Made by a program: the position numbers and the translations under genes. Positions 7,643 to 56,841 of a DNA stretch of 64,000 nucleotides are shown piece after piece. This DNA is from an uncultured Eubacteriales bacterium (GTDB lineage Bacteria; Bacillota; Clostridia; Oscillospirales; CAG-272), in NCBI GenBank assembly GCA_934433485.1, contig CAKRZR010000004.1, forward strand, positions 68,913 through 132,912, in the 5' to 3' direction. Each line of letters opens with the position of its first letter. Within the stretch, counting starts at the first letter, position 1. The notes beneath the pieces were generated by a model. The model was not told where the DNA came from. It saw nothing but the letters and a program-made list of their open reading frames with translations, and ran no database searches.

Positions 7643-7705
7643 CCTGTGTCCGCACGGTGCCGTAAATCGATTCTACGGAGTACTTTAAGAATAGGAAAGC
7701 AGAGT

Positions 7706-36595: not shown

Positions 36596-36672
36596 GATGC
36601 GCGTATCCTTTCTTTGATAAAGCTTCCCGCATGGAGGTCAACGTGGATTCATACGGGAAGAACGAATTCCCT

Positions 36673-39834: not shown

Positions 39835-40029
39835 AAGAAAATCTCCTTTGCGATCTGAAATCTGATAAAAACACATGGGAAAGGTTCCCATATTCGTATT
39901 ATAGCACATTTCGTGCCGAATTTCCATGGTTTGCACTATATTTTTCCTGCTTGCTGCGTTTTTTCTGTGTGCCGGACATGTTTTTTTCTGTGGGATTTCG
40001 AAAAAAGCCTTTTCGTATTCTGAAAGGAC

Positions 40030-40058
40030 TTGATTCCACCGCGCACGCATGCTATAAT
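40030..40058 (+). promoter_or_regulatory. Sigma-A promoter TTGATT-17-TATAAT (TG extended)
   Basis: ttgatt 40030-40035; tgctataat 40050-40058. Confidence 0.45.
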
Positions 40059-40091
40059 GAAGAAAACTTCGTATCGCAAGGAGATGAAATC

Positions 40092-42203
40092 ATGGAATTT
40101 GCATGTGGCACAGGATATCACAGACCGGTACGGCTGTCAGAGGAGACGCGCGCGTTTGCCGATCGTTCCATGCACGGTATGTACGGTGACGACGCAATGA
40201 CGCACAGAACGCTTCCCATGGACGATGTGCCGGGATTTGCGGAAATGGACGGTATGGAACGGTATGCACATGCCGTCGATGCCATTGCACGCAACGCGCC
40301 GCTGCGTCTGGTTCCGGGTGAGAAGATCTGCGGCGCGGCGACCCTCGGTGGAGCGATTTCTCATATCGTACCGGTCACGTTCGGCGGCGAAAATGTGCTG
40401 TGGTCGGTGAGCCACGTGACGGTCGGGTTCGATCGCGTGCTGGAGATTGGCATGAACGGCATTCTGCATGACGTCGACGAAAACTGCCCCGGCACGATGA
40501 AGCGGTATCTGCGCCGGATGGTTTACGCCATGCGGATCTGGCACGCACGGTATCTGGCGGCGGAGCGGGACAACGATCCGGAAATCGCCGCGATGCTCCG
40601 TCGTGTCCCGTTTGATACACCGCGAACCTTCCGGGAAGCCGTGCAAAGTCTGTGGTTCACGTTCGCGTTCACAAGGCTGTGCGGCAACTGGTCGGGGATC
40701 GGCAGGATTGACAAAATGCTCGGACCGTATCTTGAAAAGGATTTGAAAAGCGGCGTAATCACGCTGGATGAAGCGCGTGAAGTCCTCGCCCACTTCTTCA
40801 TCAAAGGCTGCGAATGGATCCAGTCCGACACGCCGACCGGCACCGGGGATGCGCAGCATTACCAGAATATCGTTCTCTCCGGTACCGACCGTGACGGCCG
40901 CGATGTCACAAACGAGGTGACCTATCTCGTACTCGACATCGTGGAAGAACTGGCGATCAGCGATTATCCGATCACGGTGCGCCTGACGGACGAAACCGAC
41001 GAGCGGTTGTACCGGCGTATCGCGGAGGTCATGCGCTACGGCGGCGGGATTCTTGCCGTATACAACGAACCGCTCATCCTCCGTTCCCTCACCGCATTCG
41101 GCTACGATGCGACAGAGGCACGCGATTTTGCGAACGACGGCTGCTGGGAGGTGCAGATCCCCGGCAGGACGAATTTCACCTATATGCCGTTTGATGCGTA
41201 TACAATGCTCATGCGCGATACCCTCGGAATAGGCGGCGAACATAAGCGGTACGATACCTACGACGCGCTGTTTGCTGCGTATATGGACAGGCTCCGGAAG
41301 CACGTGGACGACACCTACGCCGGACTTGTCGATGGCATGTGCGAACCGGACGGGCAGGGCGGCTATCGGCTGAGGTGCTTCGGAATTCCGGCGACGCTCA
41401 TCTCCCTGTTTGAACGGGACTGTATTGCCGCGGGCCTTGATTATAACGCGGGCGGCTGTCGGTATACGGTCCGCTCTCCCCACATCGGCGGCGCACCGGA
41501 CGCTGGCAACAGCCTCTACGCGATCCGAAAAGCGGTATTTGAGGATCATCTCACGACCCTTGACCATCTTCTCGACGCGATCGAAAACGACTGGGACGGC
41601 GAAGAAGTCCTGCGCCAGCGGATTCTCACCGGCTATACCTATTACGGCAACGACAACGCGGAAGCGGACGCGGTGACGGCGGAAATCCTCGACCGGTTTG
41701 CCGATATGGTGCTCGCGCACAGGGGGGAATCGCCCATCCTCTATATCCCCGGCGTATCCACGTTCGGACGGCAGATCGATTGGCTCGGACAGCGTACCGC
41801 CTCTCCGTTCGGAATGAAAAAGGGCGCGATCCTCGCCGGAAACGCGTCTCCCACACCGGGTACCGATAAGGAAGGCGCGACCTCCATCATCGAATCCTAT
41901 TGCCATGCCGATCTCGGAAAGCAGGTATGCGGCGCGGCACTGGACGTAAAGCTCCATCCGAGCGCGACGCGAGGGGAAAACGGTCTCGCCGGCATCGTGG
42001 CGCTGCTCAAAGGCTTTGTCACCTTAGACGGTTATTTCCTCCAGCTTGATGTCATCGACGGTGAAGTGTTGCGGAAAGCGCAGGAGGATCCGGAAGCGTA
42101 CAAGACCTTATCCGTCCGCGTCTCCGGCTGGAACGCGCGTTTTGTCACTCTCAACCGCCAGTGGCAGGAGATGATCATCGAACGCACGGCGACGGGACTA
42201 TGA
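40092..42203 (+). CDS. Glycyl radical enzyme, PFL-like superfamily, unusually short (703 aa), substrate unknown
   Basis: The C-terminal glycine-radical motif LSVRVSGWNARFVTL has its Gly codon at 42127-42129. The mid-protein thiyl loop NDGCWEVQIPG (Cys codon 41142-41144) is analogous to GCVE in CutC, HypD and glycerol dehydratase. An AGGAGA RBS precedes the start. Confidence 0.75.
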   Translation: MEFACGTGYHRPVRLSEETRAFADRSMHGMYGDDAMTHRTLPMDDVPGFAEMDGMERYAHAVDAIARNAPLRLVPGEKICGAATLGGAISHIVPVTFGGENVLWSVSHVTVGFDRVLEIGMNGILHDVDENCPGTMKRYLRRMVYAMRIWHARYLAAERDNDPEIAAMLRRVPFDTPRTFREAVQSLWFTFAFTRLCGNWSGIGRIDKMLGPYLEKDLKSGVITLDEAREVLAHFFIKGCEWIQSDTPTGTGDAQHYQNIVLSGTDRDGRDVTNEVTYLVLDIVEELAISDYPITVRLTDETDERLYRRIAEVMRYGGGILAVYNEPLILRSLTAFGYDATEARDFANDGCWEVQIPGRTNFTYMPFDAYTMLMRDTLGIGGEHKRYDTYDALFAAYMDRLRKHVDDTYAGLVDGMCEPDGQGGYRLRCFGIPATLISLFERDCIAAGLDYNAGGCRYTVRSPHIGGAPDAGNSLYAIRKAVFEDHLTTLDHLLDAIENDWDGEEVLRQRILTGYTYYGNDNAEADAVTAEILDRFADMVLAHRGESPILYIPGVSTFGRQIDWLGQRTASPFGMKKGAILAGNASPTPGTDKEGATSIIESYCHADLGKQVCGAALDVKLHPSATRGENGLAGIVALLKGFVTLDGYFLQLDVIDGEVLRKAQEDPEAYKTLSVRVSGWNARFVTLNRQWQEMIIERTATGL

Positions 42204-42207
42204 CGGA

Positions 42208-42924
42208 GTGCCGGATATGACAGATATGTATGCGGAGCAGACAAAATCACTGCTGGAAACCACGTTGAACACACGGGATCTCGGTGTGTACCGGAGCGCG
42301 ATGACCGGGAAACGAATGCGGATATGGAGGATATTGCGCAGCGATGTGCAGAACTATCCCTCGGAAAACGATATCCGTTTGCTGACAGAGCGGAAAATCC
42401 GTACCATTATTGATATGCGCGGAGAAAAGGAAGTGCAGCGAAGGCCCAGTGGATTTGCGGACAGAGAAGGCTTTGTGTACTGCAATATTCCCATTGAGGA
42501 AGGCAGCGGGATACCGGGGTGTATCGATGCCGTCAGCGACAGCTACATAAAGATCGCGGAAAGCAGACGTATGGCGGATGTGTTCCGCGCCATTACCATG
42601 GCACCGGACGGTGTGATGTTCAACTGTACAGCGGGAAAGGATCGCACCGGCGTTGTCAGTGCCGTTCTCTTGGGTATATGCGGTGTATCGGATGCAGACA
42701 TTCTTGCCGATTATATGCTTACAAAGACATATAGTGCGGAACGGTTTGCACTGATCCACGAGAACTTTCCGGAGATCGATATGCGAATTGTGATTCCAAG
42801 CGAACGGTACATGGCAGAATTTATGGCGCGTCTTCGTGGAAAATACGGCGGCTTCCCGGAATACCTGACGGCGATCGGTGTGACGGCGGCGGAAAGATGC
42901 GCTATTATGGCTAAGCTGTTGTAA
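42208..42924 (+). CDS. Protein tyrosine/dual-specificity phosphatase-like (CX5R)
   Basis: FNCTAGKDRTGVVSAV matches the CX5R P-loop. Confidence 0.72.
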   Translation: MPDMTDMYAEQTKSLLETTLNTRDLGVYRSAMTGKRMRIWRILRSDVQNYPSENDIRLLTERKIRTIIDMRGEKEVQRRPSGFADREGFVYCNIPIEEGSGIPGCIDAVSDSYIKIAESRRMADVFRAITMAPDGVMFNCTAGKDRTGVVSAVLLGICGVSDADILADYMLTKTYSAERFALIHENFPEIDMRIVIPSERYMAEFMARLRGKYGGFPEYLTAIGVTAAERCAIMAKLL

Positions 42925-42994
42925 ATACGTTTGTACGCCGCAAATCCGTGCGAGCGGAAAATACAGTGGAATCGAAACCTGCACACAATAAAGG

Positions 42995-43025
42995 CAGCGG
43001 AGAAAATTTCCGCTGTTTTTTCTTG
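42995..43025 (+). terminator. Rho-independent terminator
   Basis: cagcggagaaaatttccgctg followed by ttttttc. Confidence 0.6.
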
Positions 43026-43083
43026 AAAATGTCCGATTCTCGTCCCCCGTGGTGTAATATAGGTAAGAAAGGCAGGTGACCTT

Positions 43084-43593
43084 ATGCGAACAGAAGCGGA
43101 AATGGAGGACGTAATGGCGCGTTACGGCGATTTTCTCTATCGGCTCGCGCTGACAATGGTTCATTCCGACGCGGATGCCTGTGACATGACAGCGGAAACC
43201 ATGGCGCAGTATCTCTTTTCCGACAAGGAGTTCGAGAGCGAGGCACACAGACGGGCGTGGCTTATCACAGTGCTGCGCAACCGGAGCCGGAATCTTCTAC
43301 GCTACCACAGACGGCACCAGACGGTCGAACTGTCGGACAATATTCCGCAGAGGCAGAGCGGCTACGGCAGGGAAGAGGCGGCAATCCTCGCCCGTATCCG
43401 ACCGCTGCCGGAGAAATACCGCACGATCCTCTATCTTTACTACGCGGAGGAGTACAGCATCCGGGAGATCGCGGAGATGCTGTCGGTCACACAATCCTGC
43501 GCGGAAAAACGACTCCAGCGGGCAAGAGAGAAATGCGCCGCGATCTGGAAAAATGAGGAGGGGAGCGAGAGGGTATGTATACACGAGAGTTGA
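43084..43593 (+). CDS. ECF-type RNA polymerase sigma factor
   Basis: Region 2 (RAWLITVLRNRSRNLLR) and region 4 (ILYLYYAEEYSIREIAEMLSVTQSCAEKRLQRAREK). Confidence 0.8.
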   Translation: MRTEAEMEDVMARYGDFLYRLALTMVHSDADACDMTAETMAQYLFSDKEFESEAHRRAWLITVLRNRSRNLLRYHRRHQTVELSDNIPQRQSGYGREEAAILARIRPLPEKYRTILYLYYAEEYSIREIAEMLSVTQSCAEKRLQRAREKCAAIWKNEEGSERVCIHES

Positions 43594-44858
43594 AAAAACT
43601 GCAAAATATCCGTATGCCGGAAGCGGACAAAGCGCGGATAGTGGAAATGCTTGTCCAAAAGCGCGGTACAAAGCATAGATACAATCGCAGACCTATGGCG
43701 ATCCTCGCGGCGGCATTGGCGTTCTGCGTCCTCTGTACCGCGTGCGGTGTGGCGGCGCAGTATTTCATCGAACGACGGAACCTGGCAGCGTTCTGGCTGT
43801 GGGAGAACGTGCGGGTACTGGACGCGCCGGTGGAGACGGGTTTCGGCAGCATCTACTACGCTTCCATCACCGATCACCGACTATTTGTCATGTGCCGGCT
43901 CGCGGATTTAACCGGTAACGGCGTCACCGCGGAGGAGAGCTTTACCGCCATCTTCCCTGACGGAACAGAGTATCCGCTCGTGGTCCAGAATCAGGCGTGG
44001 TCGGACGCCTACAGCTTCGACACCGCGACCGTGGACTGGTACGTACAGTATGGCGCCGCGGATGTTCCGACCGTGGATACGCTGACATTGCGCTACGACA
44101 AAACCGGAGAGGAAACAGTATTGTCCTTAGGAAAGCCGGATTCGGAGATCGCGGCATATCGTACAGATGGCGTACAGATCCGTGCCGCGCAGCTTGGTTC
44201 CGGTTGTCCCGCGGTAGCGGTCAGCATCCGTGTGGAGAAAAGCTTTGGCAAAGGCTGGTTGACGGAACCGGAAAAAATGTACTTTACGGTGGGGATCGGC
44301 GCGATAAACGCGGACGGCACAGTGTACCATACGGCTTGCGCCCTACGGCCAATCGGCGATGCGAAAAGTGAGACGTGCGTTATTGGACTGTTTGCAAGCG
44401 TATATTCCGTACCGGATACGCAGCTCAGCCATGCGGTGATGCAAATAGAAGAAATGTACATGAACTGTTATCTGCGGCCGGAGTATACCATGCGAAAGGC
44501 GACGCGGCTGGACGATCTCATCGGAGAGAAGATCCGACTGCCATTTGACAAATCCATAGAGATCACAGACTGTTGGCAGACGGAGGAGGGCGATGCGATC
44601 TGTCTCGAAAGCATAACCGATCCCTCGGAGGATTTTGAAAAGATACTTTGTATGCCGGATGGAACGGTCTGGTACAATTCCCGCGGAAAGCGCATAGAAG
44701 AAACCGGTGTATGGCGCGATTGCTTTACAAAGGGGAGTGGGAAAACAACAGAGCAGTATCAGACATATGCCGAACAGGCGAAAAAGAGCGGGAAAGTGCT
44801 GTTCTTTGTCTCGCGCGCAGGATTTCAGCTTGAAAATCTTGAAAAAATCGAGAAATAA
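43575..44858 (+). CDS. Putative anti-sigma factor: single-pass membrane protein with ~360-aa extracytoplasmic domain of unknown fold
   Basis: Overlaps the sigma gene by 19 nt (translational coupling), has a TM helix at about aa 42-62, and sits in the usual anti-sigma position. Confidence 0.6.
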   Translation: MYTRELKKLQNIRMPEADKARIVEMLVQKRGTKHRYNRRPMAILAAALAFCVLCTACGVAAQYFIERRNLAAFWLWENVRVLDAPVETGFGSIYYASITDHRLFVMCRLADLTGNGVTAEESFTAIFPDGTEYPLVVQNQAWSDAYSFDTATVDWYVQYGAADVPTVDTLTLRYDKTGEETVLSLGKPDSEIAAYRTDGVQIRAAQLGSGCPAVAVSIRVEKSFGKGWLTEPEKMYFTVGIGAINADGTVYHTACALRPIGDAKSETCVIGLFASVYSVPDTQLSHAVMQIEEMYMNCYLRPEYTMRKATRLDDLIGEKIRLPFDKSIEITDCWQTEEGDAICLESITDPSEDFEKILCMPDGTVWYNSRGKRIEETGVWRDCFTKGSGKTTEQYQTYAEQAKKSGKVLFFVSRAGFQLENLEKIEK

Positions 44859-44891
44859 CGAAAAAACTGCGAAAAAATGTTCAATACCCTC

Positions 44892-44920
44892 TTGCATTTT
44901 CCGAAGAAATCGTGTATACT
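44892..44920 (+). promoter_or_regulatory. Sigma-A promoter TTGCAT-17-TATACT (TG extended)
   Basis: ttgcat 44892-44897; tgtatact 44913-44920. Confidence 0.45.
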
Positions 44921-46049: not shown

Positions 46050-46424
46050 GGGGACGTAAAGGTTTCGACGGGGATTTTGCAGTACGATAAGCGGGTAGAG
46101 CCGGGGAATCTCTTAAAAAGCTCCAACCTTAAACTAAACGCTAACGACGATTTAGCACTGGCCGCCTAAGTGCGGTCTGTCCGCCGGGGGAATGCTGCGA
46201 CCCTCGGATGTCCCGTTTCGGGAAGTACCCCCTTTGGTACTGGCATCATGCAGCAGCGTCCGTGAACGGTGAGTTCGCATTTGTAACCGTCATGCACTAA
46301 ATTGCTACTGACCGCGGAAGCCTGACGACCGGCGTCTGCGGCAGGAAACACAAAAGACCGTCTGCACCCGGAGAAAGTCGTATGAATAGGTTTTCGGACA
46401 GGGGTTCGACTCCCCTCGTCTCCA
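46050..46424 (+). ncRNA. ssrA: tmRNA (transfer-messenger RNA), CCA not encoded
   Basis: The 5' end GGGGACGTAAAGGTTTCGACGGGGAT and the 3' end GGACAGGGGTTCGACTCCCCTCGTCTCCA form the acceptor stem GGGGACG/CGTCTCC with a T-arm. The tag ORF gct aac gac gat tta gca ctg gcc gcc taa (46140-46169) encodes ANDDLALAA. It lies immediately downstream of smpB. Confidence 0.92.
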
Positions 46425-46443
46425 TCTAAGCAATCCGAATACA

Positions 46444-46478
46444 AACCCACCTGTCGGTATCATATTCGCGGGTGGGTT
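46444..46478 (+). terminator. Hairpin after ssrA (weak U-tract)
   Basis: aacccacc..ggtgggtt. Confidence 0.4.
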
Positions 46479-46530
46479 GTTCGGAATTATCGCATACCGC
46501 ACGGAAGACCAAAAGTAAGGGTAAGAATGT

Positions 46531-46570
46531 CCCCTCAGAGGTGAATGCCTCCGAGGGGATTTTGCCTTTT
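46531..46570 (+). terminator. Second rho-independent terminator downstream of ssrA
   Basis: cccctcagagg..cctccgagggg followed by attttgcctttt. Confidence 0.5.
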
Positions 46571-46925
46571 ATTATAAATTTGGTGTATACTAAACGTATA
46601 ACATCTCTTTGGCGCGGAGTTGAATCCCATCACTGTGGACACGGCTTTTTTTGAAAACGCTCCCACCAATAAGCGGTATCCCAAGGAGATGTACTACCGT
46701 CTGTTCTCTCCGCTGACTCTGCCACAGGAGATGGAGCGGGTACGGTATCTCGGATCCGGATGTACTCATCATCAACCTGCTACGCCCCCTGGGAGAGCAA
46801 AATGTGTACGGAAAAGCCTTTTCTCATGCGGGACGGACCGAAATGGCGATCGAGATCAATTAGGGTGTGCTTGGACATCGAGCGCGAGTATTTCAACTCC
46901 GGCGTCTTGTTCATTCTGAAAAGTA

Positions 46926-47564
46926 TCATTTTTCTCCGGTTAGTATTTGTATAGGAGGCTCAGAAACATACTGCAAGATGCTATCTGCTGTTTCCGCGAT
47001 GCCGACAGATGAATCCACCGTCAGATGATACTGTCGAGCGTCGCCCCAACGTTTACCGGATATGTGCTTATAGTACGATGCTCTTGCTTTGTCGGAACGT
47101 CGGATATTGCGCTTCGCTTCACGAGGCGTATCTCCGTAAGCCGTCATTACTCTGGCAATACGGTACTCTTTGGGTGCGTGAATAAACACACGAATGACAT
47201 TTTTATAATCTTTCAGGACATAATCGGCAGCTCTGCCCATGATTACGCAGGAGCCATTATCGGCAATTTTGCGGATAATGTGCGCCTGCGCCCGGATCGC
47301 TTGCTGCACCGCATGAGAAGAAAGATATAGATCGCGAAGCGCATCTGGGGCGTTTTTATGAATGTCCGAGATGAACTGCTGATCCAATCCGCTTTCATGA
47401 GCGGCGAGAGCAACCATTTCCTTGTAGTAGAATGGGATTCCCAGCCTTTGCGCTACCAGTTTTCCTACCTGCTTGCCGGAAGAACCATGTTCCCGCGCGA
47501 TGGTGATGATAACGCCTGGTTTCGATGGCCTCAGCGCGGGACTTGCGTCATCGTCCGGTTTCAA
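46926..47564 (-). CDS. Cytidylate-kinase-like family protein (AAA/NMP-kinase-like)
   Basis: VIITIAREHGSSGKQVGKLVAQRLGIPFY (a P-loop-like segment), as in cytidylate kinase-like family proteins. Confidence 0.6.
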   Translation of the reverse strand: MKPDDDASPALRPSKPGVIITIAREHGSSGKQVGKLVAQRLGIPFYYKEMVALAAHESGLDQQFISDIHKNAPDALRDLYLSSHAVQQAIRAQAHIIRKIADNGSCVIMGRAADYVLKDYKNVIRVFIHAPKEYRIARVMTAYGDTPREAKRNIRRSDKARASYYKHISGKRWGDARQYHLTVDSSVGIAETADSILQYVSEPPIQILTGEK

Positions 47565-48477
47565 AGGCTGGGCTTGCCGCGTAGTTGTAGCTGATTATCG
47601 GTACAATACAGGTCTGCATGGCGCCAAGGGGAATAAAGAAGAATGTCTGCCACTTATAGTAAAGCCCTAACGCGGTCACAGCCTGATCGCAGAAACCGGC
47701 AAGAATGAGATTGAGCCCCAATATGTAAAAGGTGTATGCCGACTGCATCAGAATATTCGGCGTACCAAGACGGAAAATTTCCGCGATATGGTGCGGGTAC
47801 AGCTCTTACACGGGAGACTTTTTATATCCCCTTTTCATCACAACCAACGCGGCGACAATTTGCCATGCGACCGTCGCAACGGCAGCTCCCGCAATGCCGA
47901 ATTCCGGCAAGCCGAACATGCCGAAGATCAGCAGTGGGTCAATAATAATATTCGTAACTGCACCGAGGATTTGCGCGACCATCGGTGTTTTCATATCTCC
48001 GTTTGATTGCAGCACTTTCGTCCAGATGCTCTCTGCGAACAGACCTATGCTGCATACGCAGACAATTCTTCCGTATACGATAACATCATGAATAACCGTT
48101 TCCGAATCTGTTGACATTTTCGCATAGAATGGCATGATTGCAAAACAGATGATGGCAAACACAAACCATAATGCAATGGCAAGCGGTGTACCGACCCCGG
48201 CATATTCATCTGCTTCTTTTCGATTGCCTACACCGAGCTTGGACGCTATGACTGTATTGATGCCAACACCGGTTCCCACGGCGAGGGCGATCATGAAAAG
48301 TTGTATCGGATAGATAATAGAAAGGGCAGTCAGGCCGGAATCCGAGTACCTGCCCACAAAAAAGCTGTCTACAATATTATAGAGCGCTTGAATGAGCTGT
48401 GCCAACATCACTGGCGGCGCAAGCCGGAAAAGTATTTTGCCAATTTTCTCTGTTCCAAACAGATCTGTCTGCTCCAT
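47548..48477 (-). pseudogene. MATE-family efflux transporter, frameshifted and C-terminally truncated
   Basis: The N-terminal half (47806-48477) is a good MATE sequence (LAPPVMLAQLIQALYNIVDSFFVGR..). The frame breaks near 47800 and continues for 66 aa in another frame (47548-47748). The total is about 300 aa versus roughly 450 expected, and the end runs into the next gene. Confidence 0.6.
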
Positions 48478-48483
48478 TGCGGT

Positions 48484-48927
48484 TTACCTCGATTCTTCCA
48501 ATGCTGTGCTAAGGGCAAGATCGTATTTCAATAAAAGATCGGTAAGCATTTGCAGCTTTTCTTTCCCCATAAGCTCTAATGCCCGTCTTTCCACCACATC
48601 CAATGACTGCAGAAAGGGAGCGGCGTATTCCCTCCCTTTTTCGGAAAGAACAAATACCTTTTCACGCCCTTTACCTCTTCCCGCGTCGTATTCCAAAATG
48701 CCGCTTTGCCGCATGGCGGTGATTGTATTATGGATGGTCTGCTTTGGTAAAATATAGCTGTCACAGATCTGTTTTTGCGTACAGAAACCGTATTCTCGGA
48801 TGGTGTAAAACACCAGCATCTCATGATAGCTGATAGAGTGCTCCGCTGACCACAAGGAGTAAATCCCTCTGCATTTGATAATTGCACAGTTGACGCTGTT
48901 GAGCAATTGTAGCGTTTCTTTTTCCAT
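48484..48927 (-). CDS. MarR family transcriptional regulator
   Basis: A winged HTH (QKQICDSYILPKQTIHNTITAMRQSGILEY); the start at 48927 follows a GGAGGGA RBS. Confidence 0.78.
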   Translation of the reverse strand: MEKETLQLLNSVNCAIIKCRGIYSLWSAEHSISYHEMLVFYTIREYGFCTQKQICDSYILPKQTIHNTITAMRQSGILEYDAGRGKGREKVFVLSEKGREYAAPFLQSLDVVERRALELMGKEKLQMLTDLLLKYDLALSTALEESR

Positions 48928-49033
48928 ACATCCCTCCAGGTCCCAAATGGGATTATAATAATATACGCATCCCATCGCATTGTGTCAATAGGTTTTCCGA
49001 AAAAAGATTTGAAACGGGTGTTGGCTCCTGTAA

Positions 49034-49447
49034 ATGGAGGAAATTTTAACGATACTGCAATATTTTAACGGTTCTATGCCCAAAACGGCTTGTATCAAAA
49101 TGGGTTTCCTTATCATTCTGGACGAAGCGACCGCCAACGTTGACCCGGAGAACGAAAAGGAACTGATGGAAGCCGTTGCCGAGCTTACGCACAATAAGAC
49201 GGTTATCATGATCGCTCACCGGCTCAAAACGGTACGAAATGCTGGCATGATCTTTGTTGTTGATCTCGGCAAGATCGTTCAGCAGGGCACGCATGACGAA
49301 CTGGTTGCTTTTGACGGACTCTGCCGCCGGTTTGTTGTCGATCGCAGGCAGCAGCGAAGAAAGTATAAAGCTCCACAATCTAAAAAGCTCGTATCATGTG
49401 TTGACGATACGAGCTTCTCCGTTTATTCTCTGTTTCCGGTAATGTAA
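49034..49447 (+). pseudogene. 3' remnant of an ABC exporter ATPase (only Walker B/D-loop/H-loop region)
   Basis: LIILDEATANVDPENEKELMEAVAELTHNKTVIMIAHRLKTV has no Walker A or signature motif upstream, so the 5' end is truncated. Confidence 0.6.
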
Positions 49448-50190
49448 TAGTCGCAATAAGCTCCGCCGTTTGCCAGCGTCTGCTTTCTGTGCAGCACACC
49501 ATGCTGGAGGGTAATCATTACTCCATCCAATTCACAAAACAGCGGCATCAGCTCGGAAACCCCCAGCTTTTCCGCATAGGCACAGATCGGGCAACGGGTG
49601 ATGCGGTAGTAGCAGGCTCCCTCATGAGGCTGCCCCACAAAGTCCACCTTAAATGAGGTTGGATACTGCTTTTCCTTTTCCGGCGTGTACCACTTGTAAT
49701 ATTTCACGACGCTCCTTTTGTTTTCCGCCTTGCCCTTATCTGTGTTCAGGTCGGTTTTTGCAAAATACCACTTGATATGATAAAGTGCTTGGCGCATCAT
49801 TTCCTGCACGAGCGTTGGGGGGATTTTCTTCTTGTTTGCAATGGCAGCCGCCGCCTGTATATCGCCGTATTTCTCAAAGGTGAATTTAAAAATCAACGCC
49901 ACAATCATGAACATGGCATGGACATATCCACAGCAAACCGTGCCGGTGAGATAGGCGACCCGAAACACTTTGACACATTTCTGTTGTTTAGGCTCGGTAC
50001 AGTGCTGCCTCAAGAGCTTCCACATCTGATAAAAGCCGATGTAGTAGAGCGCTGTTCCCAGCACGCCACAGATAATGCTGACCACCATACGCCATGTTGC
50101 CATATCAAGATACGCGACCTTGACCATTAAACCGATAGAATCCGCGCTTTGGCTTTTTCCAATTGCCGCAAACAAAAAGTCGCCGATCAC
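49423..50190 (-). CDS. Hypothetical protein: N-terminal membrane segments, C-terminal Cys-motif domain (ATC-hydrolase-like)
   Basis: YYRITRCPICAYAEKLGVSELMPLFCELDGV..GGAYCDYYI. The start is a non-ATG (GTG) with a weak RBS, so confidence is low. Confidence 0.4.
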   Translation of the reverse strand: MIGDFLFAAIGKSQSADSIGLMVKVAYLDMATWRMVVSIICGVLGTALYYIGFYQMWKLLRQHCTEPKQQKCVKVFRVAYLTGTVCCGYVHAMFMIVALIFKFTFEKYGDIQAAAAIANKKKIPPTLVQEMMRQALYHIKWYFAKTDLNTDKGKAENKRSVVKYYKWYTPEKEKQYPTSFKVDFVGQPHEGACYYRITRCPICAYAEKLGVSELMPLFCELDGVMITLQHGVLHRKQTLANGGAYCDYYITGNRE

Positions 50191-50384
50191 TTAGAGGAAA
50201 CACCCGATCATGCCCGCGATGAGTGCCCTTCTTTCCTTGCTCGTTTTCATCTTTTGCCTCCAAATCCGATTTTTACAATCTGTGTTGTCATCATTTTATT
50301 TTCTACTCTGCCGAGTAAGTGAAAAAAACGCCGGAAAGGTCAATTCCTGTAAACCATTCTGTATTCTGATTTTCCAACCAATCT

Positions 50385-51161
50385 TTATCCCAATGCCACA
50401 TCCAGCACCATCATCACACTGAATCCTACCGCAAAGAAAACCGTGCCGAGGTTTGAGTGTCGCCCCTGTGCCATTTCCGGGATCAGTTCTTCTACGACCA
50501 CATAGAGCATAGCACCGGCGGCGAAGCTCAAAAGGTATGGCAGTGCAGGAATAATGAGCTGTGCTGCAATCATCGTCAGTACTGCTCCGATAGGCTCTAC
50601 CACACCGGAAAGGACACCGCCGAAAAACGCCATGCTTTTCTTTTCTCCTTCAGCGCGGAGCGGCATTGAAATGATCGCTCCCTCCGGAAAATTCTGAATT
50701 GCGATTCCGAGCGACAGCGCAAACGCACCTGCCGCGGTGATCTGTGTGTTACCCGAAAGAAAGCCCGCATACATCACGCCGACTGCCATTCCTTCCGGAA
50801 TATTGTGCAGTGTGACCGCCAGCACCATCATGGTTGTGCGCCCCAGCTTGCTTTTCGGTCCTTCGGTCTGATCGCTGCCAATATGAAGATGCGGAATCAG
50901 ATGGTCAAGCGCCAGCAGAAACAATACGCCGATCCAAAAACCGAGAAAGGCAGGGAGAAATGAGAGCTTTCCCATATTCTCAGATTGCTCTATCGCAGGA
51001 ATCAGCAGGCTCCAGATAGAAGCCGCCACCATCACTCCGGCAGCAAAGCCGGTAAGTGAACGCTGTATCAAATCACCAGGCGACTTTTTCATAAAGAATA
51101 CGCATGCTGCGCCGAGTGTTGTGCCCAGAAAAGGGATCAGTATTCCCCAGAAAACAGATGT
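50385..51161 (-). CDS. zupT: ZIP-family divalent metal (zinc) transporter
   Basis: HNIPEGMAVG and QNFPEG are ZIP signature motifs; the start at 51161 follows a GAAAGG RBS. Confidence 0.8.
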   Translation of the reverse strand, partial: TSVFWGILIPFLGTTLGAACVFFMKKSPGDLIQRSLTGFAAGVMVAASIWSLLIPAIEQSENMGKLSFLPAFLGFWIGVLFLLALDHLIPHLHIGSDQTEGPKSKLGRTTMMVLAVTLHNIPEGMAVGVMYAGFLSGNTQITAAGAFALSLGIAIQNFPEGAIISMPLRAEGEKKSMAFFGGVLSGVVEPIGAVLTMIAAQLIIPALPYLLSFAAGAMLYVVVEELIPEMAQGRHSNLGTVFFAVGFSVMMVLDVALG

Positions 51162-51415
51162 CATTGTCTTATGCCTTTCAGATAGCTGCACTTTGCCTTT
51201 TTGAACAGTCCCGGACTGTCGGCTCCCACCGCACCGACATGGACAGTATCCTGGTGCATGATAAAAATATGGCGAATGGACTTCGGGGCAATTCCAAGCT
51301 ACCCCATTCTTTCGGCAAGGCGGTCGTAGTTATAACCCGCATCGATCATAATGGTCGTATCCCCCTTTCGGTAGAAAAAGATATTCCCAGCCATTCGCGC
51401 GCACAGGCGACACTT

Positions 51416-52196
51416 TCATCGATCCAGCCGGTATTCAGCGGCTTGGATATCTCCGTGCCGTGGTACAGCCGGCTCATTGCTTTTTTCTGAAACTCGGTTG
51501 CTTTCTTTGACATCTCTGTTCCTCCTTCGGTTTTTTCGTTCGGTGCTGCCGATGTGTGTCAGGCACGCGCCTCTGCGTGAACACCCGTAATCCGTGTCGA
51601 GACGGGTGATCCCGTACCAGAGGAACATATCGGTTCTTCCAAACAAAGAACGGTCGGTCTTTTTGCCGATCAGATCGTAGTCCTGGTTCTTCCAGCTGCG
51701 CCATGTTGCCTTGCCGTAAAGAATACGGTCGGCTACTTCAAGCGTCCGCCCGGTGACATTTGTGAAGAACTTCTTCCTCTTTGGTCCCGGATGCCCCATG
51801 ATCGCATAAAACAGACCTGTATAGAAGAAGCAATAAATATCCTTGCCCCCACTTGCTCTTGATGTTGGGATAATCCCGCAGCGCCATACCGTCGGCGATT
51901 GTTGTCGTGATCGTCAGACGCTCGTCCGAGAGAACCTGTATCAACACGCGGCATCCGTAGGAAATATCGTAAAGAATGTCGATCTTACCGGCGTAATGCG
52001 TCGCGATATAATCGGCGAGTCGTTTTGCTTCGTCCATCGGTGATACGAACTCCGTTTCCGGCTCGTCGGGGTTGAAGCCGTCGTAAGCAACAAGCACCAC
52101 ATGATAGACCATCGCCATTTCCTTCGCTGTCGGCAGCATACCGAGATAGCTCGTGCCGCCGCCGTGGAGCATGACCATAAGTTCAGGGTTCTCCAT
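51416..52196 (-). pseudogene. Alpha/beta hydrolase, frameshifted
   Basis: The N-terminal part MVMLHGGGTSYLGML..YDISYGCRV (51738-52196) continues in a second frame (51416-51799: ..FFTNVTGRTLEVADRILYG..). Small broken ORFs lie further downstream at 51200-51520. Confidence 0.5.
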
Positions 52197-52233
52197 GCCG
52201 AATTCACAAAAAATTCATAGCCTTGCTCCAATC

Positions 52234-53184
52234 TCATTTCTTCAGAATATCCGTTATCTTGGCAAAATCTTCGCGCGCCTCCTTGAAGTACGGTAGCATA
52301 CAGTAGCAATGCACCATTTTCGGTCTGGCAAAGGCTGTGTACGGAACGCCCGCGCGTTTACAGGCAGCTTCAAAGTCCGGCAGAGCACCGTAAAGCACCT
52401 CATCCGCCGAACAGAAGAAATGAATGTCACTAACACCAGAGAAATTTCCGCGCGAGCCGGAGATCATATAGTCCGGCACATCCTCCTGACCGTGACGCAT
52501 GAACTTTTCGACCGTTACCATAAATGCGTAGTCGATGGCAACATCCCTTGCATTCAGCGTCTGCATACGCGCTTTTTCTGCATCGTTCCACGGCACCTCA
52601 CCCGGAGAAACAGCAACAATATGCCTCGGTGGCGGCAAAGGCTGATCCTGCGCGTTGTTGTGTGCGGCAATGCCGAGTGCCAGTGCGCCGCCGGAGGAGA
52701 AGCCGCAGGTGCTGACATTCCCACCGCCGTACAGCCCGATCATTCTGCGGTAGCATTCATAGACCATGTCGTAGGTTTCGGTGATGCAATGCTCCATGCA
52801 GAGCGGATAAAACGGAAACCACACGTCGCACCCTGTCTCGTGGCAGAGCTTGCGCATCACGGGCAAGTCGCCCTTATCGGGTCCGATGACCATACCGCCG
52901 CCGAAAAAGTAAAGAATAGCGCGCTCCGATGGTTTTTCATTTTCACGGACGATCAGGCAAGGAAAACCGTTCACATGGATTGTCTCGTAGTGCGCCTTGC
53001 GGTCGGTAGGCGTAAATACGCCGCGATTGCGGTTCTGTTTTTCAATGACTTCCGCGATTTCATCATCCGGCAGTCCAAACGCCTTTTTCGCCCCGGAAAT
53101 CCTATATATTCCGCGCAATAAATGCGCAAAAGCGCTGATGCTCGTGTTCTCCGCGACAACACTGTTTTCCTTTGTTTCATCCAT
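52234..53184 (-). CDS. Alpha/beta hydrolase fold-3 esterase/lipase
   Basis: GGGMVIG is the oxyanion region and GFSSGG is the GxSxG nucleophile elbow. Confidence 0.78.
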   Translation of the reverse strand: MDETKENSVVAENTSISAFAHLLRGIYRISGAKKAFGLPDDEIAEVIEKQNRNRGVFTPTDRKAHYETIHVNGFPCLIVRENEKPSERAILYFFGGGMVIGPDKGDLPVMRKLCHETGCDVWFPFYPLCMEHCITETYDMVYECYRRMIGLYGGGNVSTCGFSSGGALALGIAAHNNAQDQPLPPPRHIVAVSPGEVPWNDAEKARMQTLNARDVAIDYAFMVTVEKFMRHGQEDVPDYMISGSRGNFSGVSDIHFFCSADEVLYGALPDFEAACKRAGVPYTAFARPKMVHCYCMLPYFKEAREDFAKITDILKK

Positions 53185-53818
53185 GTCACTTCTCCTTTTT
53201 CTATCTCTTTCTTGTTTATATTAATAGCGTTTGTAAGCCGCATCTCGGTTAGTTTTAACTAACCGCTGTGCTTTCAAAAAGCCGCTGATGCGGCTTTTCG
53301 TACGGATTGATCGAGTACTTTTTGGCTCTGCTGCGTAAAATATTATAGCACAGGAATGCCTGATTGTCAATTCGTCAGGGTATGTTTCTAAACCAAAATC
53401 CATGCAGGTTTTCTGCGCTCCTCTTGCAAAATGCGCGCAAATCTGACATAATATAGCTATGGATACTTTGAATGAATCGGTTTTTGCGATAAAAGGCCGA
53501 AATATAGAGGCTTTTGTCGCCAAACATAACGCAGAGTATTGTATTCCCCCGAAATCCAATACTGTCAAACCGTGACACTGCGACACAGGGATTTCACTCT
53601 CTGCCGCCCAATGCACTTCAGAACAGTTGAACAGAAGAGCTGTCGGTTCTTCAGGGTTTTCACTGTACTGTCCCTGCTTCTGTGCAGGTTGGTTAAACAA
53701 ACTTCTGAGGCAGCCAAGCGTGCCAAGAACTTTTTTCTGAAATCTGAACCTTTTATTGTTTGATTCCGACTATATATATGAAATTGATTTCAAAACCGTA
53801 TGCAAAGGAGGTGCTCAT

Positions 53819-54644
53819 GTGGATGCATTGGAAAAGCTGTTACAGGAAAATCTGATCCCGCTGCAGCGCTATGTACATTTTAAAATTCAAAACAGGCAGG
53901 ACGCGGAAGATATCATACAGGATGTATGCCTTACCGCCGCGCTGAAATTTGACACACTGCATCGTCCAGAAGCTTTCAAGGCGTGGCTGATCGGCATTGC
54001 CAGACACAAATGCCTGGATTATTACAGACGGAAAGCGGCGGAGCCGAATATCTCCCTGGACACACTGCCGGAATCCGCTTTGCGCGTATGGCTCGGAGTT
54101 GGATCGCCTGGTATTACGGAACGCAGCATGGTGCGTGACACGATGGATTCTCTCGGCGACAAGGAAAAGCAGATTTTATATCTGTTTTTCTTTTCGGAAT
54201 CTGTCGCAGAAAGACATTTCGCGCAAGCTTGGTATCCCCATTGGAGCCGCAAAAAGCTGCCTGCATTCCGCAAGAAATCAATTCCGCTCCATGTGTTCCC
54301 CCGAAAACATTCTGCTGCTTGAGAAAGGAAGAAAATCCATGCCAAGAAAAGACCATACGCACGGCTTCTCGTCTGTAATGCCTGCCGTATCCATCGAAAA
54401 ATCAACCGCGCCGTTTTTTGAGGTGCGATGCGAGGAGCAGTGGTTTAGTATCCCGCGCGTCGGCAATCAATGCGCGGAAGCGACATACCGCTATCCGGAT
54501 AAGAAGCTTGTTATCGTGCCCAATTGTTATGTGCCGAAATCCTGTCTGGTTCATGATGTGCCCGGTGTGAAAATCTGTTGCGACCATACATTGTCCGGCG
54601 TAAAAAGCTATATAAAAACGAAAAAATATGGTTTGTCCAGCTGA
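53819..54644 (+). pseudogene. ECF sigma factor interrupted by a frameshift in a T5CT4 run, with a Cys-rich C-terminal extension
   Basis: Region 2 (DAEDIIQDVCLTAALKFDTLHRPEAFKAWLIGIARHKCLDYYRRKA) is in frame 2. Region 4 (FRNLSQKDISRKLGIPIGAAKSCLHSARNQFRS) is in the +1 frame. The junction is at tttttcttttcgg (54185-54197). A GTG start at 53819 follows an AAAGGAGGTG RBS. Confidence 0.6.
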
Positions 54645-55120
54645 CAAACGAGTATATCCGTAATCTCGGAACGATCTTCGACGATGAAGGTTGTGACGAG
54701 CCGACACAGGTATCCATATTTCTGGAGGAAAGCTATGACGTGCTTGTCAACGGCAACGACCGCGTTTTCGGAATCCCCGTCCTTATAAAGGGAAACGCAG
54801 CGGAAGCATCCGGAAACGGCTATACAATCGCCGCAGAAAATGTCCGGTATACGCTCGGCGTATGGAATGTCACGATAGGAAGCCGCACGTTTGAAACGAT
54901 AAAATGTATCCTTACGCAGAACGATTCCTGTGAAGAAACCTATATCGACAGAAACGGCCGGGTGGTTCTGCTGCGTCAATACGAGTGGAGCGAGAATCTC
55001 GCCGCAAACGATTATTACTCCGACAGCGATCGAGATGCCATGCAGGAAAACGCCGTTATTTTCGTAAACGGGGATCCGTATATCCATACGGAAGACAGAA
55101 TCAGCGAATATGTGCTCTGA
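54578..55120 (+). CDS. Hypothetical protein
   Basis: A 180-aa ORF with no recognisable motifs. Confidence 0.4.
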   Translation: MRPYIVRRKKLYKNEKIWFVQLTNEYIRNLGTIFDDEGCDEPTQVSIFLEESYDVLVNGNDRVFGIPVLIKGNAAEASGNGYTIAAENVRYTLGVWNVTIGSRTFETIKCILTQNDSCEETYIDRNGRVVLLRQYEWSENLAANDYYSDSDRDAMQENAVIFVNGDPYIHTEDRISEYVL

Positions 55121-55149
55121 TCCCTGCGTATGCTGCGGAAAAAGCAAAA

Positions 55150-55190
55150 GCGACCGGGTTATCCGAAAAAGGATAGCCCGGTCGCTTCTT
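55150..55190 (+). terminator. Rho-independent terminator hairpin (15-bp stem)
   Basis: gcgaccgggttatcc gaaaaa ggatagcccggtcgc followed by ttctt. Confidence 0.55.
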
Positions 55191-55191
55191 A

Positions 55192-55830
55192 GTGCGCCTG
55201 GTGAGCGCACGTTCTCTAGGGTGAAAGACCCGAAGTCGCCCGGTAGCGGGAAGACATAGCCAAAGGCAAGGGTGTCCGTCGTGAGGCGGAATCTGAAGAA
55301 AGCCGGATTTCAGGGGTTAAAAGGTCTCCTGAAGGGCAAAACTCTGGCCTGACGAACAGAAATCGCATACAAGGCCGTAAATGAGGGTGAGTTTGCCAGA
55401 CAAAACAAAGCCCAGTAGCTACACGGAATCATCTACGGTAAATGCGGCAGGTAAAGAGGGAAAGAACGTGTGAGTACCCGGGGAGGTGTTGCCGACGCAA
55501 AAAAAATGCGCAGTAACAACGAACGGCAAGAAGTCAGCAGAGGCCATAGTACCGGAGTTTTTTTACCGGAAAGGGCCGAACAATCGTTAGCCCCAAATAG
55601 ATTACAGAAGGAGGTCAACATGAAGAACGCAGAAAATCAGGGCAACCTGAGCTGCCCGCAAAGAGCGAGTGCGGAACACGAAGGGTATGCGGGAGCGCAG
55701 AGTTACGAGTCTCTGCACTTATGCGATTGAACCGCCGTGTACCGAACGGTACGCACGGTGGTGTGAGAGGTCGGGGCTATTTTTGGTTCCTCCTACTCGA
55801 TCGCTGTTTTTGCGATCCCTCTATGAAACC
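55192..55830 (+). ncRNA. Candidate large structured RNA (~640 nt, ORF-free): group II intron-like (class C-like, ORF-less) ribozyme candidate
   Basis: It starts with GUGCGCC immediately 3' of a terminator hairpin. Near the 3' end, a domain-V-like hairpin (55732-55761) reads CCGCCGU-GUACC-GAAC-GGUAC-(GC bulge)-ACGGUGG, with a CGC triad, a 2-nt bulge on the 3' strand and a 4-nt loop (GAAC, not a canonical GNRA). There is no credible ORF on either strand, and it lies between convergent genes. Confidence 0.3.
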
Positions 55831-55840
55831 ACAATATGGG

Positions 55841-56635
55841 TTACCGCAGACCGTGTCTTGCCAAAACCTCCATAACGGCGGCAGGATGGTTGGTTGTGAT
55901 CAGCTCACCGCCGTTTTCATATCCATGGTGAATCTGTTCCTCTGTGACCGCGTTTGCACCGACCCAGGGATGGATGCCCTTTGCGCGTACCTCATCGTAT
56001 TGCGCCTTGCTGCAAATCGGATCCTCATGCCAGGTGGAACGACCGTTTTCGTCATAGGATGCATTGAACATGCAGATGCAGTAGAGCACATCCCGCGCGG
56101 CAGTGTTGCCCATGATCTGGTAGGGATAATAGCCATGCAGGCGGTATTTGTGCCCATAGGTTTTGTCGATCCAAAGCAGCAGCTCGCCTTCAAAGCTGTT
56201 GATGAACAGACGGTCCGCAAGACCGTATTCTTCAAAAAGCGCAATGGTTTTGGACGCGCTCTCCAGGGCAAATGCTTCGCCTTTGTCGTGGATGTAATCC
56301 TTAAACTCAAAATTGAACTGCATTTTGTCGTCGCGCCGGGTCAGCTCCAGAAACTCGCGGAAGGTTGGAATACGTGTTCCTTGAAACTTGGCATCTGTCC
56401 GGATACCGAAATCGAGCCGTTTCAGCTCTGATAACGTCATATCCGATACAAGACCATGTCCGTCAGAGGTGCGATCCACGGTGGGATCGTGGATGACAAC
56501 GATTTCTCCGTCCTTGGTCATATGTAGATCCAGTTCGATCATGTCCACGCCGAGCGCATAGGCGCTTTCAAAGGCGGGCATGGTGTTTTCCGGGAATCCT
56601 TCCACATTCCCGCGGTGCGCAGCTACTTCCATCAT
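55841..56635 (-). CDS. Glycerophosphodiester phosphodiesterase (GDPD family)
   Basis: MMEVAAHRGNVEGFPENTMPAF..IELDLHMTKDGEIVVIHD; the start at 56635 follows an AAAGGTG RBS. Confidence 0.82.
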   Translation of the reverse strand: MMEVAAHRGNVEGFPENTMPAFESAYALGVDMIELDLHMTKDGEIVVIHDPTVDRTSDGHGLVSDMTLSELKRLDFGIRTDAKFQGTRIPTFREFLELTRRDDKMQFNFEFKDYIHDKGEAFALESASKTIALFEEYGLADRLFINSFEGELLLWIDKTYGHKYRLHGYYPYQIMGNTAARDVLYCICMFNASYDENGRSTWHEDPICSKAQYDEVRAKGIHPWVGANAVTEEQIHHGYENGGELITTNHPAAVMEVLARHGLR

Positions 56636-56841
56636 GGTTTTCACCTTTTCGTATATATATGCCCGTTCTGTTTGACGGGTTTCTTGGAAACCTATTATGG
56701 GATATTGCAAGTAGAAAAGATCGTGTGGAGTGCAGATTATGCTTTTTTCCGGCGAATCCTCTTGCATTCCGGTGGGATTTGTGGTATACTTTTGTCCGAT
56801 GAGCGCAAATACAATATATGCAGAATGAAATACGGTCCCGC

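Follow-up and report, generated by a model that had tools for sequence, protein, structure and literature searches.

Pseudogene-rich regions of bacterial genomes form by deletional bias under relaxed selection. In Dehalococcoides, tandem islands at ssrA, the gene for transfer-messenger RNA (tmRNA), are mobilized by serine recombinases and marked by 20-bp repeats, and the islands downstream of ssrA end in a "fixed" region without such signatures (PMC3146451). Class C group II introns insert after intrinsic terminators; a CGC triad is a trait of this class, and bacterial group II introns without an open reading frame (ORF) are described as rare (PMC4424553, PMC4748821). In this study, we analyzed the DNA downstream of ssrA in an uncultured gut Clostridia bacterium. 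The window, by which we mean the whole 64-kb stretch of DNA that was analyzed, has the same sequence as a section of a metagenome scaffold of 137.6 kb (ENA ERZ28614312, scaffold_404). Within it we scanned positions 46425-55840 (9.4 kb), hereafter called the zone, in which the foreign patch itself covers ~46,564-55,800. We consider it likely that this patch is a foreign, non- or barely functional accessory patchwork that was horizontally acquired and is eroding in place, with several internal deletions. At least eight genes of the zone, acquired horizontally, are broken, and the zone is an ordinary eroded island, not a live mobile element.

The contrast with the rest of the window is strong. 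The gene smpB and a nitroreductase gene lie directly upstream of the tmRNA gene. By mechanical tiling, the median ORF is 155 aa in the zone, compared with 333 aa in the left flank and 314 aa in the right flank; 54% of bases fall within ORFs of at least 200 aa, compared with 89% and 93% in the left and right flanks, and every other 9.4-kb window outside the zone reaches at least 79%. This contrast in ORF length and ORF coverage indicates that the clustering of remnants is not a matter of chance. The firm remnants are a MATE pump together with an orphaned kinase-like ORF, a stub of an ABC exporter, a DUF6796::ATC_hydrolase chimera, a metallo-beta-lactamase fragment, an Abhydrolase_6 pseudogene, an ECF sigma factor and a group II intron; a GT8-like fragment is a tentative addition. 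An earlier reading made from the DNA letters alone (the sequence-only reading) had described an old, eroded, nonmobile island. Composition, truncations relative to intact homologues, relaxed selection, and the lack of an integrase and an att repeat agree with that description. The four remnants it named, a MATE pump, an ABC ATPase stub, an alpha/beta hydrolase and an ECF sigma factor, were all located where it had placed them by Pfam, PDB and homologue mapping; the group II intron at 55192-55797 had escaped it. Besides conspecific contigs, our comparisons included the nearest GTDB species-level representatives, the metagenome-assembled genome contigs L001 (82-87% DNA identity) and L002 (84%). 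The features of the region are as follows.

46050-46424, plus strand: intact tmRNA gene ssrA (ARAGORN; Rfam RF00023, 150.3 bits, full model).
46420-46424, no strand: crossover core CTCCA, an unoccupied attB; large-serine-integrase elements use this site in conspecifics.
46425-46563, no strand: ancestral sequence after ssrA with two terminator-like hairpins, collinear with the sister-species contig L001 to 46563.
46620-46925, plus strand: multi-frame debris, perhaps the center of a GT8 glycosyltransferase spread over three frames (hand-spliced translation; tentative).
46926-47564, minus strand: Cytidylate_kin2 ORF (Pfam positions 1-175/176, domain complete; TTG its only start).
47548-48477, minus strand: MATE efflux pump remnant (Pfam MatE; codons 1-309 of ~450).
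48484-48975, minus strand: MarR-like regulator ORF, uninterrupted, with weak family matches.
49088-49447, plus strand: C-terminal stub of an ABC exporter (~83 aa from Walker B on, of ~577 aa; left breakpoint ~49112).
49423-50250, minus strand: in-frame deletion chimera of a DUF6796 5' part and an ATC_hydrolase 3' part (Pfam; junction ~49851).
50385-51191, minus strand: ZIP/ZupT-type metal transporter, uninterrupted ORF (Pfam Zip; ZupT profile 17-260/266).
51224-51513, minus strand: N-terminal fragment of a metallo-beta-lactamase fold with in-frame stops (Lactamase_B positions 5-61/196).
51608-52211, minus strand: Abhydrolase_6 pseudogene with three lesions (tblastn of the intact 260-aa homologues P0005, P0006 and P0011).
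52234-53184, minus strand: Abhydrolase_3 (hormone-sensitive-lipase-like) ORF, uninterrupted (Pfam positions 1-209/210).
53185-53818, no strand: AT-rich spacer, ~44% GC, in which strains differ by 1-nt and 153-nt indels.
53819-54322, plus strand: ECF sigma factor, frameshifted by +1 within a T-run (Sigma70_r2 in one frame, r4 in the next).
54339-54644 (101 aa) and 54578-55120 (180 aa), plus strand: two overlapping ORFs with no family match.
55192-55797, plus strand: ORF-less group II intron with class C features, directly after a terminator hairpin at 55148-55187.

Composition and counterparts elsewhere point to a foreign origin. The tetranucleotide correlation with the whole window is 0.62-0.82 at 46.5-57 kb and 0.87-0.94 elsewhere, and GC content is 49.2% in the zone, 55.0% in the left flank and 53.0% in the right flank. 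Pieces of the zone have 76-84% DNA identity to intact accessory clusters in other gut bacteria. In one such cluster, represented by contigs L163-L167, genes for DUF6796 (251 aa), a methyltransferase (272 aa) and ATC_hydrolase (208 aa) stand intact in that order and are convergent with two ABC exporters (577 and 586 aa). Window positions 49112-49851 have 82% DNA identity to L163 8199-8959, a segment made up of the 3' part of the ATC_hydrolase gene, the 260 nt at the 3' end of the ABC gene and the spacer between them. Because the window piece matches exactly those parts, the cluster must have been collapsed by two deletions, one leaving the chimera and the other the ABC stub. The chimera joins positions 1-133/225 of the DUF6796 profile to positions 10-143/145 of the ATC_hydrolase profile; in the window an in-frame stop at 50191-50193 reduces it to a 255-aa ORF (49423-50190), whereas the gene call in the conspecific contig L016 is 275 aa. 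Among the best 150 of 310 matches at E <= 0.001 in a HMMER search of 1.84 billion representatives, no protein matched both halves, and in a 5.8-billion-protein collection the conspecific allele P0391, with 44 member sequences, is the only entry with both domains. The ABC stub, put at ~90 aa by the sequence-only reading, does exist and aligns to the last ~83 residues of ABCB-type nucleotide-binding domains in PDB.

A second module has counterparts inside mobile DNA. Window positions 51607-53196, which hold the hydrolase pair, have 83.8% DNA identity to a segment of L039-L042, where the hydrolase module lies between large serine recombinases, beside a methylase, and is followed by a ZIP fragment. 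The damage in L039 is the reverse of that in the window, with Abhydrolase_3 split into 208 and 107 aa (9032-9985) and Abhydrolase_6 intact. Since a different gene is broken in each, the module decays differently in different hosts. ZIP and metallo-beta-lactamase fragments also occur as debris in L039 and L164 (742-871, 1740-1895), in an order that differs from that of the window.

The left part of the patch holds the MATE pump and its former partner. The pump remnant aligns to residues 3-310 of DinF-BH and structural homologues of 446-464 aa in PDB, and the last third is absent. The window strain has an in-frame stop at 47806-47808, where L016 has a sense codon; this nonsense allele is present in 5 contigs, including Logan assemblies of two runs. 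The sequence-only reading had taken the pump to be split across frames. The remnant is real, but its two pieces lie in one frame with the stop between them. A 413-nt deletion with its junction at 47573/47576 is present in both the window and L016, whereas L171, a contig from a Hadza sample, retains the 413 nt. There they code for the missing part of the pump (MatE positions 98-161), and the open frame continues without a break into the cytidylate-kinase-like domain. Because the deletion removed this connecting sequence, the kinase-like ORF at 46926-47564 is now an orphan, without the MATE gene it was joined to. L171 has lesions of its own, a frameshift in the MATE gene and a nonsense codon in the kinase-like part. 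The MATE and kinase-like genes adjoin in Roseburia and Lachnospira records too. The MarR-like ORF next to the pump matches HTH_27 at E = 0.0023, below the gathering score, and HpaR at E = 7e-4 (NCBIfam). To the left of the kinase-like ORF, the multi-frame debris reported earlier at 46590-46925 is present at 46620-46925; its resemblance to a GT8 enzyme is weak, as the hand-spliced translation matches Glyco_transf_8 positions 74-165/253 at E = 1.4e-3 with 18.6 bits, below the gathering score, and the unspliced frames gave no Pfam match in a six-frame scan.

Further to the right, the metallo-beta-lactamase fragment scores 27.3 bits against a gathering score of 22.7, and window positions 51359-51513 have 83% DNA identity to L164 1740-1895. 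This stretch had been noted earlier as tiny ORF debris at 51200-51520; debris it is, and it can now be assigned to the N-terminal part of Lactamase_B. The Abhydrolase_6 pseudogene has lost its start codon, has a frameshift at ~51845 (codon 124) and lacks the last 57 of 260 codons. At ~75% identity to its homologues, it follows frame -3 through codons 3-124, continues in frame -1 through codons 125-203 and shows no homology beyond them, so that the hydrolase is indeed broken across frames as first proposed. The split is also present in L016 and in cluster P0001, which has 35 member sequences. The ECF sigma factor is likewise interrupted at a homopolymer, as the sequence-only reading had it: base-level comparison with L016 shows four T residues at 54191-54194 in the window and three in L016, and the +1 shift parts region 2 from region 4. 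The L016 gene is in frame but has a premature stop in region 4.2, leaving 146 aa that match TIGR02937 positions 1-151/165. The spacer at 53185-53818 holds no supported gene, as none was called in L016 or L017 and there was no Pfam or NCBIfam match. The 101-aa and 180-aa ORFs had no Pfam, NCBIfam or plasmid tblastn match, and they may or may not be one broken gene.

Independent assemblies indicate that these lesions are real and still arising. L016, from another sample, has 98.05% identity to the window over 20.5 kb and carries the same stubs and the same Abhydrolase_6 frameshift; L171 has 98.4% identity, and L171-L174 come from further samples. Three lesions are restricted to the window strain (the MATE stop, the DUF6796 stop and the sigma +1 frameshift), one to L016 (the sigma nonsense codon) and two to L171 (the MATE frameshift and the nonsense codon in the kinase-like ORF), while the 413-nt MATE deletion is common to the window and L016. 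Thus, the conspecifics do not carry the same genes intact and in the same order, with the frameshifts resolved as assembly errors, which is the finding that would have spoken against an eroded island; they share the lesions and add independent ones. Sequencing errors, assembly errors or chimeric joins might also produce such damage: the window is a metagenome scaffold, one lesion lies in a short T-run, and the ssrA end and the intron are points at which the contigs of many other assemblies stop. Yet the assemblies from other samples reproduce every truncation as well as the Abhydrolase_6 frameshift, tens of member sequences carry the lesion alleles (35 for P0001, 44 for P0391), even the window-specific MATE stop recurs in the Logan assemblies of two runs, and the flanking 54 kb of the same scaffold is free of such lesions. 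We therefore regard an artifactual origin as highly improbable. Because independent conspecific assemblies, L016 and L171, share the truncations and add their own lesions, the zone is not an assembly artifact.

The pattern of substitutions fits relaxed selection. Counts were made between the window and the strain of L016 and L028, a single strain pair with small counts, and gave synonymous to nonsynonymous codon changes of 12:27 in the zone, compared with 145:86 in the left flank (Fisher p = 3e-4 versus the zone), 22:5 in the low-divergence left-flank genes alone (p = 6e-5) and 29:16 in the right flank (p = 2.5e-3). The 101-aa ORF was counted in the wrong frame, and its contribution of 1:1 is negligible for the zone totals. 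The zone ratio is what neutral change would be expected to give.

Several points weigh against this reading of the patch. All sequences compared are metagenome assemblies. The right boundary is set by composition and the intron only, and no relative was found with an empty arrangement joining 46563 to the GDPD gene right of the intron; that neighbor, too, has a synonymous to nonsynonymous ratio of 1:4. As L001 and L002 have unrelated genes after ssrA, a larger rearrangement at the locus is conceivable. The ZIP, Abhydrolase_3, MarR-like and kinase-like ORFs are open in three strains and have full-length domain matches, and the counts for these four ORFs are small, with 14 changes in all; they could be functional. 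Taken further, these observations would make the zone a still-useful accessory region in which only some neighbors are dead, and in which the ZIP transporter, the lipase-like hydrolase, the MarR-like and kinase-like ORFs, the chimera and the two unassigned ORFs all count as functional. The chimera, in frame and with 44 member sequences, adds to that argument. The substitutions do not: the four open domain-bearing ORFs give 4:10 (p = 0.02) and the chimera 1:7. In addition, the chimera and the kinase-like ORF each have a nonsense codon in one strain, and the kinase-like ORF has no upstream partner and starts only at a TTG codon. We think a functional region of this kind unlikely, and an eroding, barely functional patchwork remains the reading that we favor.

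The 3' end of ssrA is a live integration site in this species, and in the window it is empty. The tmRNA gene was confirmed at 46050-46424, as first read, by both ARAGORN and Rfam; it encodes the tag peptide ANDDLALAA and does not encode the 3' CCA. The att sites share a crossover core flanked by element-specific arms. The common (C)TCCA core was found in attB of the window, L016 and L180, in attL of L020 and L018, in attR of L171 and in attP of L188. The window attB reads ...CTCGT CTCCA TCTAAGC and attL of L020 ...CTCGT CTCCA CCAAAAC, while attR of L171 follows the 3' end of an integrase gene (...CACCGTG CTCCA TCTAAGC), as does attP of L188 (...CAAG TCCA CCAAAAC).

Two different elements, one represented by L020 and L188 and the other by L171 and L183, have used this site. 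In L020 the sequence after ...CTCGTCTCCA switches to CCAAAACAATATAATCC..., and this tail (7690-8247, 560 nt) has 92% identity to the viral contig L188 (IMG/VR UViG_3300045988_149025). The matching 560 nt of L188 lie directly 3' of the gene for a 513-aa large serine recombinase (...CAAGTCCA followed by CCAAAAC...), and this ~15-kb viral contig fragment also encodes a portal protein, a prohead protease, a capsid protein, an HNH endonuclease and a large terminase (TerL). By its gene content, the occupant would be like a small phage or a capsid-forming satellite. We considered L020 as a strain that lacks the zone and rejected this, its divergent tail being the left end of the integrated phage-like element. 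In L171 the zone is intact, and at window position 46420 ssrA is replaced by the 3' end of the gene for a 517-aa serine integrase (...CACCGTG followed by CTCCATCTAAGC...); after the integrase come phage genes, including repressor-like and excisionase-like ones (L171 7337-13923), and the viral contig L183 carries a copy of it with 94% identity. The tmRNA gene of the empty site ends ...CTCCATCT, with no encoded CCA (window 46421-46427), and in the strains with an occupied site the element supplies ...CTCCACCA, that is, the CCA, on integration. Several short contigs end exactly at the attB point. An attP 18-mer predicted from attL and attR had a single viral hit, L182, which we dismissed as a chance match in an unrelated high-GC contig.

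The zone has several marks of an island at a tRNA or tmRNA gene: it adjoins the tmRNA gene, its composition is atypical, and it is absent at the same locus in L001 and L002, which after ssrA have unrelated, intact, ordinary genes with no mobility genes. Nothing of the 46.6-64 kb content was found downstream of ssrA in L001 or L002. The sequence-only reading had proposed an element integrated at the ssrA 3' end and, if so, an insertion that might be strain specific. In favor of such an element, with its integrase and attR later lost, the zone lies next to a gene that is a proven site for at least two serine-integrase elements in this species, one of its cargo modules has a counterpart within an element that serine recombinases flank on both sides, the ssrA end is the exact point at which L002 and L020 part from the window, and the tandem ssrA islands of Dehalococcoides end in a signature-less "fixed" region (PMC3146451). 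However, the junction of the zone is not at the integration core. The foreign DNA starts ~140 nt after ssrA; L002 parts from the window ~5 nt past the end of ssrA, and L001, which is collinear to 46563, 140 nt past it. Integration at the core would have set element DNA directly against ssrA, whereas the attB core here is undamaged, serves other elements as their site, and is followed by 140 nt that are common to L001, which has no zone. Because it is shared with this sister species, the sequence at 46425-46563 is ancestral chromosome and lies outside the foreign patch. The second of its hairpins takes part in a 28-nt direct repeat (46538-46565 versus 46053-46080 at the tmRNA 5' end; 71% identity, 11-nt exact core), a match that is probably due to chance.

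Traces of an integration event are also missing. No recombinase family was detected in a six-frame Pfam scan of 46425-55840 at E <= 0.1, and no copy of the last 18-25 nt of ssrA was found in the window with up to 5 mismatches, blastn-short giving chance-level words only; the absence of an integrase and of an attR-like repeat, remarked on at first reading, is thereby borne out. The zone is carried by L171, in which the site is occupied, and equally by the window and L016, in which it is empty, and it is found in all three conspecific assemblies that reach it, so that it is not a strain-specific insertion: every conspecific contig reaching the region has it. In L171 the prophage sits between ssrA and the zone, and the zone thus behaves as chromosome and not as an inserted unit. 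The zone lies outside attB and is not what those integrases insert, and this argues against integration at the ssrA core. Since it lies beyond 140 nt of ancestral DNA and is present whether the site is occupied or empty, the zone does not look like the product of such an integration; we consider the ssrA-borne element quite unlikely. A metagenome scan with a conserved 30-mer from the ssrA 3' end gave, among the matches listed, only distant Clostridia (66-75% identity). The search for homologues of the flanking fucosidase, aimed at the right boundary, yielded close relatives (84-88% identity) only on contigs of <3 kb.

At the right edge, the patch ends in a group II intron that lacks its protein gene. 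A strong 17-bp terminator hairpin at 55148-55187 lies 3' of the 180-aa ORF, and the intron begins with GTGCG at 55192. Rfam models RF02001 (131.5 bits, gathering score 32; 55275-55472) and RF01998 (50.2 bits, gathering score 35; 55509-55576) both match. The intron retains domains 1-3, the start of the gene for the intron-encoded protein (IEP) and putative domains 5-6. Some 1.3 kb of the reverse-transcriptase/maturase ORF has been deleted, and a 36-codon stub (55620-55730) remains in which the first ~31 and the last ~5 IEP codons are fused by a clean internal deletion. The intron has 68% DNA identity to a Peptoclostridium intron with ltrA, and the Peptoclostridium relative has the same terminator layout. 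In a predicted fold and in the alignment with the Peptoclostridium intron there is a D5-like hairpin with a 2-nt bulge and a CGC triad, followed by a D6-like hairpin; the Rfam scan listed no D5/D6 covariance-model match at E <= 1. Contigs from four other samples, arriving from the GDPD side, break inside the intron, which suggests a multi-copy repeat. No full-length sister copy was seen within the 64-kb window, and to judge by these breaks one may be present elsewhere in the genome. Variability of the island was entertained as a cause of these breaks and set aside, as they fall inside the intron and a repeat explains them better. It is possible, if doubtful, that the ~606-nt intron is not dead debris but an active, nonautonomous "miniature" class C intron with a complete ribozyme and several copies per genome, spliced or mobilized in trans; the trans-acting protein would then come from full-length relatives.

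We propose the following order of events. Cargo modules that are intact in other gut Clostridia would have been acquired at the locus: a MarR-MATE-cytidylate-kinase-like module, a DUF6796-methyltransferase-ATC_hydrolase module convergent with ABC exporters, an Abhydrolase_3-Abhydrolase_6-...-ZIP module and an ECF sigma module. Their original vehicle may have been a serine-recombinase element similar to L039. Successive internal deletions would then have collapsed these modules, leaving stubs of genes and a single in-frame chimera. Next would have come frameshifts and nonsense mutations, which under relaxed selection appear to be still accruing independently in each strain. A class C-type intron would have inserted after the right-edge terminator and later lost its own reverse-transcriptase ORF.

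The neighborhood of the patch offered further observations. The GDPD gene to the right of the intron (55841-56767, minus strand) is covered by profiles in its N-terminal half only (Pfam 1-159/244; NCBIfam 11-122/251), has a GC content of ~51%, and differs between strains by 1 synonymous and 4 nonsynonymous changes; it may belong to the foreign patch or be under relaxed selection too. In the left flank, the stretch at 42203-44508 involves an ECF sigma factor (43084-43593) and a 427-aa protein (43575-44858), a pair that is absent from L001. The gene for the 427-aa protein is unusually divergent between conspecifics (35 synonymous, 35 nonsynonymous changes), and L018 calls the sigma factor of the pair at 130 aa versus 159. 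Divergence between the window and L016 is patchy at 36000-37000 and 40000-44900, with 4 to 105 differences per kb, and divergence from L016 is far higher in the SASA-domain, PFL-like and anti-sigma-like genes than in their neighbors. This patchiness looks like the result of recombination imports.

For annotation, the clean-up result is that pseudogene or stub is the proper label for the ORFs of the zone, in place of pump, ATPase, hydrolase and sigma factor. The three conspecific assemblies show decay under way, with old deletions held in common and new lesions that differ from strain to strain. Nearness to ssrA does not by itself imply ssrA-targeted integration; here the eroded DNA is found past an attB that has no occupant. 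The region also provides a naturally formed in-frame gene chimera, the product of a deletion, and an example of a bacterial group II intron without its protein gene.

Compared with the tandem ssrA islands of Dehalococcoides, the nearest system described so far, the zone likewise lies just downstream of ssrA, has atypical composition, marks a break in synteny and carries accessory cargo; serine recombinases act at ssrA in this species too, and the zone corresponds to an old part without integration signatures. Unlike those islands, it has no repeat, it is preceded by 140 nt of ancestral DNA, and its cargo is mostly fragmentary. The serine-integrase prophages and phage satellites that integrate at ssrA have a common att core, an integrase stop codon at the junction and an element-supplied CCA; unlike L020, L171, L183 and L188, which carry such elements, the window holds an empty attB only. 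Like class C group II introns, the window intron follows a terminator, has a GUGCG 5' end and high Rfam scores for D1-D4, and is predicted to have the D5 CGC triad and 2-nt bulge; unlike typical members of the class, it has no IEP. As in pseudogene-rich regions shaped by deletional bias and relaxed selection, the zone combines truncations, deletion-made in-frame fusions, frameshifts and nonsense codons, is near neutral in its substitutions, and has independent lesions in each strain. Unlike in genome-wide reduction, the decay is limited to one 9.4-kb foreign patch, and the surrounding 54 kb is intact.

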